Translations under genes and position numbers: made by a program
IMG/VR virus record: IMGVR_UViG_3300045996_000711
Location: 1-47,892 of that record
Source: a virus
Direction: 5' to 3' (one strand)
Length of the DNA stretch: 47,892 nucleotides
Notes under the pieces: generated by a model
Database searches by the model: none
What the model was told of the DNA's origin: nothing
The model's input: only the letters and a program-made list of their open reading frames with translations
Shown here: positions 2,953-47,892 of the stretch, piece after piece
How the letters are laid out: each line of letters starts with the position of its first letter
How positions within the stretch are numbered: position 1 is the first letter of the stretch

Positions 2953-3825
2953 TCACTTGATGTTGATGAAAGGAAGCGCGCCACCGGCATTCGTGGTAGG
3001 CAGATGTCCGTCCCACTTTTCGACCGCCGTCATTTGAACGATTTCTGGATTCGCCGTGATGGCCTGGGCCTTGACTCGGATCGCATTAGCCTGAGCCTCA
3101 GAAATGATCCGCAACGATTCAGCCGAGCCGAGCGCGTTGGCAATCTTCACGTCTGCCTCAGCCTTCGCCTTGGCGACCTGATTCTGCGCACGCTGAGCTT
3201 CCTGCGTCATGGTGATCTTAGCGTTGATGGCCTGCGTGACGGTAGGCGGCAAACGAAGCTCGCCGACCCAATAGATTTTCTCGATGACGATGCCCAAGGC
3301 TTGGACCTGCTCGGTTACATCCTTCTGGACCTTGGCGATGAGGTCAGTCTTGCCCTTGCCGTAAACAGTTTCGACCGGAAGCGTCGAGCCGTTCTTCACC
3401 AGCGAATCGCGGACCATATTCCGCAGGTAAATGTCGGTGATTTCATCCACGCCCTTGCGATACTTCTGGAAGACCAAAGCGGCCTTCTCGGGGCGGATGT
3501 GGTAGCTGATACCCACGTCGGCGGTGACCGGCAGACCCTCGGCTGTCTGAAAGCCGACCTCTTCGTTCGTGCAATCGCCTTCCTGGCAATCCTTGGCCCA
3601 AGTGTAGTTCTGCGTGAACGTCGGAAACAAATACATTTCCTCGTTGAATCCCACCCAATGACGACCGGGCGACTTCTCTTCCACGTCCACGCCCTTGGAG
3701 CCGCCGAGCAAGTAGACCTTAATGCCGACGTTACCGGCCGGGACCTTGTAGATGTTTGCCATGACAACCAAGCCCGCGACCAACACGAGAATGCCTGCCA
3801 CACTTGCGATGATGACCTTACGCAC
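2953..3825 (-). CDS. SPFH/band-7 (prohibitin/stomatin-like) membrane protein
   Basis: 290 aa. N-terminal TM (VIIASVAGILVLVAGLVVMA), then an SPFH-like core, then a C-terminal Ala/Gln/Lys coiled coil (QEAQRAQNQVAKAKAEADVKIANALG). Confidence 0.85.
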   Translation of the reverse strand: MRKVIIASVAGILVLVAGLVVMANIYKVPAGNVGIKVYLLGGSKGVDVEEKSPGRHWVGFNEEMYLFPTFTQNYTWAKDCQEGDCTNEEVGFQTAEGLPVTADVGISYHIRPEKAALVFQKYRKGVDEITDIYLRNMVRDSLVKNGSTLPVETVYGKGKTDLIAKVQKDVTEQVQALGIVIEKIYWVGELRLPPTVTQAINAKITMTQEAQRAQNQVAKAKAEADVKIANALGSAESLRIISEAQANAIRVKAQAITANPEIVQMTAVEKWDGHLPTTNAGGALPFINIK

Positions 3826-44765: not shown

Positions 44766-44996
44766 TCAGTTCTCGGATCGTCCTCGTAAATAGGCCAAAT
44801 CCTCGGCAACTTTCTTCAGTTCATCATGCAGTTTGGAGAAATTGACTTGAAAATCCCTTTGAATGTTGGAAAGGTCTTCCCGAGTCACAAACGTGGCAAT
44901 CTTGCCCTGCAATTTGAACACCCACACGAATAATCCCGTCACAGACGCAATGGTTAGCGCCTGCACAATGGACTCGAAGCTCATTTCAAGCACCAT
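44766..44996 (-). CDS. Small membrane protein (76 aa) in the lysis cassette (holin/antiholin candidate)
   Basis: TM IVQALTIASVTGLFVWVF. Directly downstream of the endolysin. Confidence 0.45.
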   Translation of the reverse strand: MVLEMSFESIVQALTIASVTGLFVWVFKLQGKIATFVTREDLSNIQRDFQVNFSKLHDELKKVAEDLAYLRGRSEN

Positions 44997-45057
44997 TCGC
45001 GCTTCCTCAAGGATAAGTCATGTTCAAGGTACATGCATTTACCTGAAGGAAATGTCA

Positions 45058-45636
45058 TTAACGACCGCCAAAAGCCTTATAGGCCTTCGCTAGCTTGATG
45101 TCGTATTTGTTGGCTGAATAGCCGGAGCCGTTATACCCGAAGGCGAATCCGGCCCAATCCTTGCGGCGCAACTCATCGTCCAGATTCCGGCCCTTTACGT
45201 AACCGATAAACGCATCCAAATGATCGCGCTCTGATCGATACATGGCATTTATGAATGACTGAAGGGACGAATAGCCGCACACCTTCCAGTTAAAGCCCAT
45301 GATCTGAAACTTTCCATAACTGGCTGATTGTAATGCGGCTTCTCGGTCTAGACTGACGGCCTGGGCGAGCCGGCGATGCTGATGCTGGCCGGTCGGCCCG
45401 TATAGTTTCCGGTCCCAGCGCGCGCTTGAAATGTTGGGATGAGAAGCCCTGAACTTACCCTTGGTCAGTCGATCAAAGATATGGGCTTCAAAGAGAATGA
45501 CAGGTTCGCCAGTGGGGAGAAAGCCATCGCCCTGAGACTCTACTTCAGCCACAGCCTTGATAGCTGCCGCTTCGCAGTCAAGCTCACGGGCTTTGTCTTG
45601 GTAATCCTGTTCAGTAAGCTTCGGCTTTTCTGCCAC
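45058..45636 (-). CDS. Endolysin, N-acetylmuramidase (DUF3380) family
   Basis: 192 aa (GTG start; RBS GGGGGTGA). AIKAVAEVESQGDGF...ILFEAHIFDRLT...YGKFQIMGFNWK...DWAGFAFGYNGSGYSANKYDIKLAKAY. Confidence 0.85.
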   Translation of the reverse strand: MAEKPKLTEQDYQDKARELDCEAAAIKAVAEVESQGDGFLPTGEPVILFEAHIFDRLTKGKFRASHPNISSARWDRKLYGPTGQHQHRRLAQAVSLDREAALQSASYGKFQIMGFNWKVCGYSSLQSFINAMYRSERDHLDAFIGYVKGRNLDDELRRKDWAGFAFGYNGSGYSANKYDIKLAKAYKAFGGR

Positions 45637-45691
45637 AAGTCACCCCCTGCGTTCCATCAAGGCTATCACAGTCAATGGGTTGTGAAAAGTG

Positions 45692-45779
45692 TGGTGCCGC
45701 CGTCGGGAGTCGAACCAAGAGGGTATCCCCTCCGAACCTTCAGGTTAAAAGCCTGATGCTCTCCAAGAGCTTCAGCGGC
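45692..45779 (-). tRNA. tRNA-Lys(UUU)-like gene with a 16-nt hairpin insertion in the T stem
   Basis: Acceptor GCCGCTG/CGGCGGC plus ACCA. D arm GCTC-TTGGA-GAGC. Anticodon arm TCAGG-CTTTTAA-CCTGA. The T arm becomes TCGGG-TTCGACT-CCCGA only if 45716-45731 (AGGGGATACCCTCTTG) is removed. Confidence 0.55.
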
Positions 45780-45799
45780 ATATAAACAAGTTACAAATA

Positions 45800-45969
45800 T
45801 GGCGCTTGCGGACCGGGCTCGATACCGGCTGGTCCTGAGCTTGCTGGCCTAGGGGCCTGCTTGTGAAGTCCATCACTTCCGTCCTCTCCTTTTAGGTTGC
45901 AAGGAGCGCTCATTTAACGATGGTGACCCGCTTCCGTCACGCTGCATGTCCCTCCACGCTGCCGCAAGC
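45800..45969 (-). ncRNA. Structured ~170-nt RNA closed by an 8-bp acceptor-like helix with a GCCA 3' end
   Basis: GCTTGCGG (45962-45969) pairs with CCGCAAGC (45804-45811), followed by G-CCA. T-like arm GCCGG-TATCGAGC-CCGGT. At least four internal hairpins. Confidence 0.35.
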
Positions 45970-45984
45970 AAAATAATTAGACTA

Positions 45985-46091
45985 TGGCCTTCGTGGGATT
46001 CTAACCCACAGTACGCTGGTCCTCCGGTTCAATCGCCGTCCAGCTTCGCCTTTTTTGACTTTCAGCGTCTAACACATTCCGCCAGAAAGCC
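45985..46091 (-). ncRNA. tRNA-like element (Leu-like D arm, canonical T arm, no recognisable anticodon helix; 107 nt)
   Basis: Acceptor GGCTTTC/GAAGGCC. TGGCGGAATGTGTTAGACGC resembles the class II tRNA-Leu D arm. T arm GTGGG-TTAGAAT-CCCAC. The central 54 nt do not form a 5-bp/7-nt anticodon arm. Confidence 0.4.
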
Positions 46092-46155
46092 ATAATCTAA
46101 TGAAAAGATCCGTTACACGCTCCGGTGGACCAAGCCGGGCTCCCTGCCGGGGAGA

Positions 46156-46380
46156 TTATACTGAAAGGGTTGCTCCGAAGCCTTCTTCGTGCTTTGCCAT
46201 AGCGCGAGCCACATCAAGGGCCCGATCTTCACTAGGGAACTCTGCAATGACCTCACTACCACCAAGGCTTCTTTGAGTTCGATCCTCTGACATATAGGGG
46301 TGGCAGTAACGGGTGACTACATATCGAACCACCGGCCGTATCCGATACTCCGGGCCTGGGACATTCTTCTCGTTGAACAT
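46156..46380 (-). CDS. Hypothetical protein (74 aa)
   Basis: ATG at 46380 preceded by GGAGA. It is the only ORF inside the RNA-rich locus. Confidence 0.45.
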   Translation of the reverse strand: MFNEKNVPGPEYRIRPVVRYVVTRYCHPYMSEDRTQRSLGGSEVIAEFPSEDRALDVARAMAKHEEGFGATLSV

Positions 46381-46566
46381 ACTATCTCCGCGCCCCGCAG
46401 GGCATAAGGTTGAGGGTTGCCGGTTACCATCGTCCGGCATTGCTGCGCCAAGTTAGCATCTTGTACGCGCAATGGGTGGCTGCTTTGACGCATTGAGCCT
46501 GCGTCGGGACCCGGTCGCCGATCCGTACTGAGCAATACTGGAAGATTTGCTATTCCTCCCTCCCTC

Positions 46567-46614
46567 AGTCAATTACGCTATGCGTTTCGCCGTTTACGGC
46601 TCATCAGATTGACT
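46567..46614 (-). ncRNA. Hammerhead ribozyme (stem I open; type I topology)
   Basis: Minus RNA: AGUCAAU-CUGAUGA-GCCG-UAAA-CGGC-GAAA-CGC-AUA-GCG-U-A/AUUGACU. All core positions are canonical: C3-A9, G12 A13 A14, A15.1-U16.1, H17=A. Predicted cleavage is between 46574 and 46573. Confidence 0.8.
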
Positions 46615-46619
46615 TTAAG

Positions 46620-46749
46620 GCGCTGGTCTCTCCCGGCTGTCACGTCGTTATCCCCGCTACTGGCTCCAGACGTTCTCGTACCGCGATTACTCCAACGGGG
46701 TTAGGCCGTGCCTTCAATGCTGGGTTGGCTACGGAAACGATACCAGCGC
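46620..46749 (-). ncRNA. ~130-nt structured RNA domain immediately 5' of the hammerhead
   Basis: 8-bp closing helix GCGCTGGT (46742-46749) with ACCAGCGC (46620-46627). Nested CGTTTCCG/CGAGAACG, CCAAC/GTTGG and ACGTC/GACGT helices. Confidence 0.35.
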
Positions 46750-46762
46750 GTTAAATAGTTCT

Positions 46763-46829
46763 TGGTGCCGCAGAAGTAGCCAAGCCTACTGGGGAATGCT
46801 CTAGGATTGCCCTAAAGCCATGCTGCGGT
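46763..46829 (-). ncRNA. 67-nt tRNA-shaped mini-RNA lacking a D arm, with an encoded ACCA end
   Basis: Closing helix CCGCAG/CTGCGG plus ACCA. 7-bp hairpin GCTTTAG-GGCAATC-CTAGAGC. 5-bp hairpin AGTAG-GCTTGG-CTACT. Confidence 0.35.
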
Positions 46830-46838
46830 TCATGGGGG

Positions 46839-47039
46839 TCACTTTAGCAACTCTAGCGCCGTAAGCCCTTCTGCTCCGCTGGGAGCTGCTACGGGCACAT
46901 AATCAATACCGTTATCGTAGTCAATGTCCTTCGGACCCCACTGCTTCAGTAACTCTTCGCGGCTCTTAGCCGGCTCAAGGATCGCTTTCATGTTCTTGTT
47001 CATATTCAGCCAGTATACGTTATGCGTAGAAGTATCCAT
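46839..47039 (-). CDS. Hypothetical protein (66 aa)
   Basis: ORF, overlap-coupled to the upstream gene. Confidence 0.45.
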   Translation of the reverse strand: MDTSTHNVYWLNMNKNMKAILEPAKSREELLKQWGPKDIDYDNGIDYVPVAAPSGAEGLTALELLK

Positions 47040-47286
47040 CTTTAGCCCTCTGTTTCTCTAGTTCTGCTAGCCATTCTTTTCGGTATTCGGCCGTGTATTC
47101 CTTGAGCCACCAGCGCGCGATTGCAATTCGCATGGCGTACTCGTCCACCGAAATACCCGGACGAAGCTCAGCCTTCTCTATCGCGCGCTTAAGCGGGTTT
47201 TTTGTCGGGGTTGACATACAGCTTGTTTGAGAAGTAACGGCATTCGCCGCTTGGGAGAGTGTACTAATGGCCGATACGCTTGCCAT
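47020..47286 (-). CDS. Hypothetical protein (start uncertain: 47286 or 47217)
   Basis: 88-aa ORF. No clear RBS at either ATG. Confidence 0.4.
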   Translation of the reverse strand: MASVSAISTLSQAANAVTSQTSCMSTPTKNPLKRAIEKAELRPGISVDEYAMRIAIARWWLKEYTAEYRKEWLAELEKQRAKDGYFYA

Positions 47287-47340
47287 TGAACATCACGGCT
47301 ACTTTCGTCGCTGCATAGGCATCAAGGGATTCGTGGTATT

Positions 47341-47574
47341 TCATGAAAAAAGTCCTTTGAAAAATGCATCAGCGGCGGGACCGAAGTATTTAACCAGCAC
47401 CGTGGCAATGGCTACACCGAACATGACCCACATGATTTCGATCAGATTGGCTTTCGGAGGAGGAGGAATCTCAAGATTCTTACGGCGTTCTTCATCACCC
47501 ATCATCCAAGTATCGAAACGATGCTTCTTAGTCTCTGCAAGTTCACGGTTGGCGTCTGATTCGCTTCGGCTCAT
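47341..47574 (-). CDS. Small C-terminally anchored membrane protein (77 aa)
   Basis: ATG at 47574 preceded by GAGAGGGGAA. The TTG at 47649 in the ORF track is less likely. TM IEIMWVMFGVAIATVLV. Confidence 0.45.
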   Translation of the reverse strand: MSRSESDANRELAETKKHRFDTWMMGDEERRKNLEIPPPPKANLIEIMWVMFGVAIATVLVKYFGPAADAFFKGLFS

Positions 47575-47658
47575 GTCGTTCCCCTCTCGTTTCCCTGTAG
47601 CGAAATCATACTTCGGTTTTTTATGAATTTGTGACCATTCGTCGGCCAATAACTACCG

Positions 47659-47862
47659 TTAGTCGTCGTCTTGATGAATTTTGGCTACATAGACCCGGTG
47701 AAACTCCATTTCCCCATTGTCGTCTAGCCAATAGTCGCCGATGCTAGGCGAATGGACAAAGATTCTACCGATGCTTGGCTGCATCGTAGCGTCTTCCGGA
47801 AAAATGTGTGTCCACAGACCCTTTCCGCTTGGGTTGTGGCCGGTGATCGAATAAATCTTCAT
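47659..47862 (-). CDS. Hypothetical protein (67 aa)
   Basis: ORF whose 5' part lies in the terminal duplicate. In the circular map it follows the RusA-like gene with an ATGA-type overlap. Confidence 0.5.
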   Translation of the reverse strand: MKIYSITGHNPSGKGLWTHIFPEDATMQPSIGRIFVHSPSIGDYWLDDNGEMEFHRVYVAKIHQDDD

Positions 47863-47892
47863 GCCGGTTCATCCTGTAGAAACTCTACCAGA
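47766..47892. repeat. Terminal overlap copy 2, identical to 1-127
   Basis: Exact 127-nt identity with the window start. Confidence 0.95.

Follow-up and report, generated by a model that had tools for sequence, protein, structure and literature searches.

Results

A hammerhead motif lies between nin-like genes and the lysis cassette of a complete phage genome

The stretch of DNA analysed here (the window, 47,892 nt) starts and ends with the same sequence: positions 1–127 repeat positions 47766–47892 as an exact 127-nt overlap, and the related contig L048 aligns across the junction. The identical ends lead us to regard the window as a complete phage genome of ~47.8 kb that is circular (or terminally redundant). 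It has no nucleotide match among GenBank phages, and its large terminase is 60% identical to the counterpart in a Stenotrophomonas phage. Read along the minus strand across the junction, the gene order starts with NinB, a RecA-dependent nuclease, small ORFs and ORF66, continues through a 459-nt spacer, ORF74 and a 519-nt spacer with a tRNA-like RNA and tRNA-Lys(UUU), and ends with the endolysin, holin- and spanin-like genes and the terminase (Table 1). The genome is thereby of a lambdoid-like type. PF11860 is found in the endolysins of relatives.

A hammerhead ribozyme motif occupies part of the 459-nt spacer, which, judged by gene order, appears to sit at the lambdoid position of the early/late boundary. 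The motif is intergenic, shares its strand with all neighbouring genes and is overlapped by no ORF of at least 40 aa on either strand. Its predicted cut is 193 nt from ORF74 and 937 nt from the start codon of the endolysin. The initial annotation had placed the motif in a leader upstream of the lysis genes; since a scan of 44900–47892 detected neither a sigma-70 promoter nor an intrinsic terminator near the hammerhead that could define a leader, the term describes synteny only, and we do not use it further.

Table 1 Features of the hammerhead locus, in window coordinates.
Feature	Position	Strand	Evidence or remark
ORF66, last gene upstream of the hammerhead spacer	46839..47039	-	Marker retrieving close relatives
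Structured element, ~78 nt, directly after the ORF66 stop codon	46761..46838	-	By-eye covariation, L052 and L050
Lineage-specific non-coding insert carrying the hammerhead, 341 nt	46420..46760	-	Alignment with L048, L050, L051, L052; BLAST
Conserved pseudoknot RNA motif, ~95 nt, directly 5′ of the hammerhead	46620..46713	-	Homologues, pairing, model R2
Hammerhead with predicted distal stem I extension	46562..46620	-	MFE and centroid folds
Type I hammerhead ribozyme (very probable)	46567..46614	-	Sequence read, MFE fold, sole regex hit, Rfam HH9, model R1
Predicted self-cleavage site, 3′ of A17	46573..46574	-	Hammerhead numbering on the sequence
Hairpin competing for the stem I 3′ strand	46527..46569	-	Constrained partition functions; 3′-product fold
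Hairpin GCCCUGCGGGGC	46385..46410	-	Directly before the ORF74 Shine-Dalgarno sequence
ORF74, first downstream gene	46156..46380	-	Conserved small protein preceding the lysis cassette across the phage group
tRNA-like non-coding RNA	45985..46091	-	Rfam tRNA 28.1 bits, just under the gathering score
tRNA-Lys(UUU), enlarged T-arm region	45692..45779	-	ARAGORN; Rfam tRNA 40.7 bits
Endolysin (muramidase family), first lysis-cassette gene	45058..45636	-	PHROGs endolysin, E 1e-74

The motif has the core, stems and fold of a type I hammerhead

On the minus strand, 46614 to 46567 reads AGUCAAU-CUGAUGA-GCCGUAAACGGC-GAA-ACGCAUAGCGU-A-AUUGACU. Stem I is formed by 46614–46608 with 46573–46567, and the core strand C3 U4 G5 A6 N7 G8 A9 is present as CUGAUGA at 46607–46601. 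Stem II and its UAAA loop (GCCG-UAAA-CGGC) span 46600–46589, with G10.1 and C11.1 at 46600 and 46589; they are followed by G12 A13 A14, present as GAA at 46588–46586, and by stem III with its AUA loop at 46585–46575, where A46585 and U46575 form the A15.1/U16.1 pair. Position H17 is A17 at 46574, not G, giving the triplet GUA. All invariant positions are thus canonical, with none of the 11 fixed core bases altered and 15 of 15 stem pairs preserved, and stems I, II and III (7, 4 and 4 bp) are Watson-Crick throughout. Stem I is open with the 5′ and 3′ ends, while stems II and III are closed by their loops (UAAA and AUA), which is the type I topology. There is no core-adjacent mispair and there are no multiple mispairs in the short stems, the properties on which hammerhead candidates have been accepted previously (PMC3088659).

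The minimum free energy (MFE) fold of 46620–46560 is the hammerhead three-way junction itself (−18 kcal/mol, z = −3.2), and only 1 of 200 shuffled sequences folds as well. Stem I is predicted to continue for a further 4 bp (CCUU 46620–46617 with AGGG 46565–46562) across an AA/G internal loop, and a comparable internal loop appears in the Rfam HH9 alignment; in this modelled fold, the internal loop of the extended stem I is a candidate partner for loop II, a tertiary contact that hammerheads require to cleave fast at cellular Mg2+. Together, these features indicate that the minus strand of 46614–46567 very probably encodes a complete, canonical type I hammerhead. Our reading of sequence and stems is identical to that of the initial annotation and is joined by the MFE fold, and hammerhead numbering places the cleavage site where it had been put, at 46574/46573 after GUA.

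Chance expectation and covariance models

A pattern scanner run over both strands detected no type I hammerhead in the window other than this motif. When stem lengths were relaxed, 100 shuffles gave an expectation of 0.02 hits per window, and with stems of at least 6/4/4 bp they gave none; 1.06 Mb of unrelated viral DNA yielded one dubious, AT-rich hit. At gathering thresholds, Rfam reported only a tRNA for the whole window. Under E-value reporting, the motif matched Hammerhead_HH9 at 34.2 bits against a gathering score of 52 (cmscan; E = 5e-7 in 401 nt, 6e-5 over the whole window), and it reached the gathering score of no Rfam hammerhead model. A covariance-model score short of the family threshold had been named earlier as grounds for refuting the motif, and formally this applies, yet the threshold is uninformative for compact phage type I hammerheads: among other plainly canonical phage hammerheads that we tested, five scored 25–31 bits in Rfam or were missed, so the threshold does not discriminate for this subtype. 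A pattern of the core plus stem II retrieved 12 matches from IMG/VR, all 12 of which close a proper stem I and are plainly hammerheads.

Since the Rfam threshold was uninformative for the subtype, we built our own covariance model, R1, from compact type I hammerheads in IMG/VR retrieved with a pattern that fixed core bases only. This gave 38 unique hammerheads with a closed stem I, of which the 32 that aligned cleanly were used, the window being left out. R1 scored the window hammerhead at 49.5 bits (E 7.6e-11), a score in which only stems, spacing and flanks are independent evidence, the training set having been chosen by core-sequence pattern. It was the only R1 hit in the window and the second best of 13 hits in 203 kb, and R1 also recovered six held-out hammerheads with a short stem III, plus the earlier set. 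The window hammerhead has the 4-bp stem II, the family-typical loop II (U..AA) and the A-rich sequence 5′ of stem I seen in the R1 family; its 3′ flank is atypical, lacking the AA present in 23–24 of the 32 members.

Neither regex, Rfam nor R1 revealed a second hammerhead or other ribozyme in the 47.9-kb window. An exact 34-mer of the hammerhead has no match in IMG/VR, and searches of IMG/VR, GenBank phages and relatives from metagenome and Logan assemblies brought up no orthologue, so there is no covariation for this particular locus.

Compact type I hammerheads are common in viral contigs, with four in L263 and three in L270, and those of L029, L030, L031, L033, L034, L039, L040 and L178–L296 are likewise placed by Rfam far below the gathering score or missed. 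Some of these contigs hold ribozyme-associated RNAs: L029 (356–427, 603–733, 2028–2092) carries RAGATH-16, RAGATH-4 and a twister-P1 match slightly short of its gathering score (59.3 against 67.2 bits), and L030 (1983–2055) carries RAGATH-16. L040 (1908–2026) has a Betaproteobacteria-1 RNA 300 nt downstream of its hammerhead, which itself follows a RecA-dependent-nuclease-like gene, much like the nin-like region of the window.

The hammerhead lies within a 341-nt insert that close relatives lack

Homologues of ORF66 retrieved five close relatives (L048–L052), and homologues of ORF74 four distant contigs. The order of nin-like genes, small ORFs, ORF74, spacer and endolysin is common to these nine related contigs, none of which contains a hammerhead by regex or R1. 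In the five close relatives, the sequence on either side of the hammerhead segment is up to ~90% identical in nucleotides; L048 matches the window at 87–92% up to 46761 and again from ~46410, and BLAST places the breakpoints at 46761 and 46420, with the boundary ambiguous by 1 nt. At this slot, L051 and L052 have ...CACCAAG joined straight to CAACCCU(C/U)AAC...CUUAUGCCC, the window has 341 nt at exactly that junction, and L048–L050 have an unrelated segment of ~85 nt. This presence or absence of the 341-nt insert among close relatives is the main new finding of our analysis.

Since the short junction is found in two more divergent relatives, the hammerhead segment was most simply gained in the lineage of the window phage. 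The hammerhead would thus have come with a mosaic RNA segment as an accessory; it does not belong to a conserved system of lysis control, and because close relatives manage without it, any benefit of the ribozyme is dispensable and could be nil. The initial annotation had seen a special linkage of the hammerhead to a tRNA cluster and the lysis leader. Five relatives with the same gene order lack both hammerhead and insert, and since the ribozyme is missing from relatives that have the same cluster, a link to lysis timing and the tRNA cluster finds no support; nor did we find a paper linking hammerheads to endolysin or lysis loci.

Within the window, there is no further copy of the insert, no convincing target-site duplication and no repeats. 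Relatives found through the endolysin (L001–L024) have only the lysis cassette in common with the window and carry no hammerhead. ORF74 has a wide distribution that extends to other contexts, and in none of the relatives retrieved with it from IMG/VR, metagenomes, GTDB genomes and a protein database (L025–28, L041–47, L174–177) does it follow a hammerhead. Global folds of the spacer and of the insert are no better than those of shuffles (z = −0.19 to −0.85).

A conserved pseudoknot motif adjoins the hammerhead

Directly 5′ of the hammerhead lies an RNA motif of two interleaved helices, Pa (CCCCGUUG/UAGCGGGG) and Pb (ACGUC/GACGU); GACA comes next, and then a hairpin whose loop is GAGAGA. Homologues at ~85% identity occur in Phage zth2-2 (OL791268; L053, 2978–3072) and in the IMG/VR contig L075 (4487–4581). 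Across the three sequences, the 18 pairs are 98% paired and 6 of them are changed on both sides, the unpaired stretches UGGAGCCAG and GAGUAAUCGCGG are strongly conserved, and the hairpin loop is GAGAGA or GAAAGA. A second covariance model, R2, recognised the motif in these three phages only, among the loci retrieved in this analysis, and no Rfam family matches it. The hammerhead adjoins the pseudoknot in the window only; the copies in Phage zth2-2 and L075 have no adjacent hammerhead. The 130-nt structured domain that had been proposed upstream of the ribozyme thus survives in part: ~95 nt are the pseudoknot common to two other phages, whereas the domain as a whole folds no better than shuffles (z = −0.46). 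The pseudoknot motif is the most novel by-product of our analysis.

Three related ideas were set aside. Read as a minimal HDV-like ribozyme, the pseudoknot offers no space for P3/L3 (9 nt between Pb and Pa) and has no Rfam hit. The leader of L025 and the tail of the ~85-nt insert of L048–50 were both considered as homologues of the upstream domain from a by-eye likeness, and neither was supported by local alignment or R2.

Further RNA structures surround the insert

The element that follows the ORF66 stop codon is kept in all close relatives (L048 ~3205–3283, L050, L051, L052). It consists of an outer stem CCGCAG/CUGCGG and two hairpins, one being AGUAG-GCUUGG-CUACU; the other has compensatory changes in L052, and a different hairpin takes its place in L050. 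On the other side of the insert, the hairpin GCCCUGCGGGGC hardly varies among relatives with protein identity as low as 53% (L026, L174, L175, L177) and may be a translational or processing signal. Besides the hammerhead, the spacer contains at least three conserved RNA structures without an Rfam match at threshold.

Downstream of ORF74, the tRNA-like RNA combines an acceptor-like stem of 10 bp with a D-like arm and a canonical T arm, while an insert of ~50 nt takes the position of the anticodon arm. The RNA received no call from ARAGORN and is also present in the distant relative L174 (2950–3062), with 9 compensatory pairs. The T-arm region of tRNA-Lys(UUU) is ~25 nt instead of the expected 9 and contains an extra GAGGG-GAUA-CCCUC hairpin; this may be an unusual or non-standard tRNA. 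Measured from the predicted cut, the tRNA-like RNA (46091) begins 482 nt and tRNA-Lys (45779) 794 nt downstream, with ORF74 between. The spacer from ORF74 to the endolysin (45637–46155, minus strand) is hypervariable cargo, with 0–3 tRNAs in relatives (Ala, Ser and Leu in L050, Gly in L052). Complementary boxes shared in this spacer, UUUUGCUUGCGGC at ~45975 and CCGCAAGCGCCAUAU at ~45805, could close a domain of ~170 nt.

Predicted products of self-cleavage and a competing hairpin

Cleavage at the predicted site would yield a 5′ product ending in ...GCGUA with a 2′,3′-cyclic phosphate and a 3′ product beginning 5′-OH-AUUGACUGAGGG. A hairpin 3′ of the hammerhead (ACUGAG...CUCAGU) competes for the 3′ strand of stem I. 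In constrained partition functions, the hammerhead fold makes up ~50% of the ensemble until ~45 nt of downstream sequence have been transcribed; in longer transcripts, with the competing hairpin present, its equilibrium fraction falls to 0.2–30% depending on transcript length. Because the downstream hairpin lowers this fraction, cleavage could be partial. The 3′ product folds at −15.6 kcal/mol, with the hairpin 4 nt from the predicted new 5′-OH end.

These features suggest a mechanism in which the 48-nt motif would fold during passage of RNA polymerase and cut itself between A46574 and A46573. The upstream RNA would retain the folded ribozyme with a 2′,3′-cyclic phosphate at its 3′ end, while the downstream RNA would start with a 5′-OH, its freed stem I strand captured in the hairpin 4 nt from the end. 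The downstream message, encoding ORF74, the tRNAs and the lysis genes, would then be physically uncoupled from the upstream transcript. In a Gram-negative host, it would probably be a poorer substrate for 5′-end-dependent decay by RNase E, and probably stabilised on that basis, an overall effect akin to that of the engineered ribozyme insulator RiboJ.

Discussion

Our analysis of the sequence makes it likely that the window phage carries a genuine hammerhead that cleaves itself co-transcriptionally and so processes a polycistronic transcript. Read-through transcription across the hammerhead is plausible, since its vicinity showed neither a terminator nor a promoter in our scan. Processing of long phage transcripts is a published, unproven idea for phage hammerheads (PMC3088659; PMC6765202), which are abundant and whose role in phages is largely unknown (PMC6765202).

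Several other explanations deserve weighing against a transcript-processing ribozyme. That the motif resembles a hammerhead by chance alone and forms no ribozyme in vivo is hardly credible: its single occurrence and its score below the Rfam gathering score would fit, but even relaxed stems give an expectation of only 0.02 motifs per window and the observed stem lengths give none, the E-values are 6e-5 (Rfam, whole window) and 7.6e-11 (R1), and the MFE fold is the hammerhead. A more serious reading, although we still consider it unlikely, is that the hammerhead is an active or recently active passenger on a mosaic 341-nt segment, of no use to the phage and brought in by illegitimate recombination or by an unrecognised small mobile RNA cassette. 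It occurs in one genome only, five relatives have clean junctions, two different fillings are found at the same slot, the cargo between ORF66 and the endolysin is hypervariable throughout, with 0–3 tRNAs, and the 5′ module of the insert stands alone in unrelated contexts of two other phages. Yet a neutral 48-nt motif would decay fast, and here all 11 fixed core bases and every one of the 15 stem pairs have been preserved; signs of mobility, such as target-site duplications, repeats or a second copy, are absent; and the recurrence of compact hammerheads across many phages, often several per contig, argues for selection generally.

Two further possibilities give the neighbouring RNAs a part. Maturation of the tRNA and the tRNA-like RNA by the ribozyme, in the manner of the HDV-like theta ribozymes of gut phages, would draw on the two RNAs that lie downstream in the same orientation, tRNA-Lys and the conserved tRNA-like RNA, and theta ribozymes do connect ribozymes, phage tRNAs and late or lysis genes (PMC10879173); with the cut 482 and 794 nt away from the two RNAs, a protein gene between, and relatives that have tRNAs at the locus without a hammerhead, we regard this as very improbable. 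The pseudoknot could instead sense a ligand or protein, control stem I and thereby gate cleavage and downstream expression as part of a composite regulated device. In favour of this, its structure is genuinely conserved, with strong conservation of the unpaired bases as well, and it directly adjoins the extended stem I; 8 bp specific to the window (GCGCUGGU/ACCAGCGC) can close the upstream domain as a whole beside the ribozyme, and stem I has alternative folds. Such a device is nevertheless quite improbable, as the pseudoknot occurs without a hammerhead in its two other phages and matches no riboswitch or ribozyme family in Rfam, the whole upstream domain gives z = −0.46 against shuffles, and only three pseudoknot sequences are available.

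A bolder reading of the sequence would unite the hammerhead and the pseudoknot 5 nt upstream in a single composite RNA cassette, either a gated switch or one in which the pseudoknot represents a new ribozyme or riboswitch class; we hold this to be improbable. In the gated version, ligand- or protein-gated self-cleavage would set the 5′ end of the ORF74/tRNA/lysis message, and in the other the pseudoknot would accompany a known ribozyme, as RAGATH motifs do. If the cassette were real, the insert of 341 nt would constitute a regulatory RNA module capable of transfer.

Returning to the processing ribozyme that we favour, the locus offers a clean natural comparison, in which near-identical phages differ by a hammerhead-bearing insert of 341 nt at the boundary of early and lysis/late genes, and this insert polymorphism, together with the neighbouring unclassified RNA motifs, has some experimental value. 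More broadly, compact type I hammerheads, a common feature of viral contigs, are missed at the thresholds of the Rfam hammerhead models. Because intergenic hammerheads are well known in phages, the one described here is a further example of a familiar type, and knowledge of hammerheads as a class is unchanged by it.

Among known systems, a mechanistic analogy for uncoupling and stabilisation is RiboJ, which was reportedly engineered by Lou et al. in 2012 from the sTRSV hammerhead and a 3′ hairpin. In both cases the hairpin that follows the hammerhead would, once cleavage has occurred, head the downstream message; RiboJ is a synthetic construct based on a type III hammerhead, whereas the arrangement in the window is natural, of type I and known from sequence. 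The best Rfam match, Hammerhead_HH9 (RF02275), shares the type I topology, the A-rich loop II and a stem I internal loop ~6–7 bp from the core. HH9 is a vertebrate intronic family and the window hammerhead has one non-canonical distal-stem pair in its alignment; the likeness is one of architecture and does not speak for common descent. Theta ribozymes (minimal HDV-like; Kienbeck et al. 2024, PMC10879173) are likewise small self-cleaving RNAs of phages in a tRNA region that precedes lysis and structural genes. They belong to a different class, with a nested double-pseudoknot HDV fold for which Rfam gave no hit here with E up to 10, and cut within ~5 nt of a tRNA, so that their site abuts it, whereas the cut in the window is 482–794 nt away with an ORF between.

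The nearest relatives in kind are the type I hammerheads of phages and prophages (PMC3088659; Rfam clan CL00010), which have the same core, three-stem junction and open stem I and are likewise intergenic, on the sense strand and within a phage polycistronic unit. Several published cases have two or three hammerheads flanking genes (PMC3088659), whereas the window has a single copy, one in 47.9 kb, and so shows none of the clustering described as at least two within a few kb (PMC3088659). Its stem III, only 4 bp with a 3-nt loop, also differs from those of published phage hammerheads, while many hammerheads in IMG/VR share with it the compact 4-bp stem II, the A-rich loop and the short stem III.
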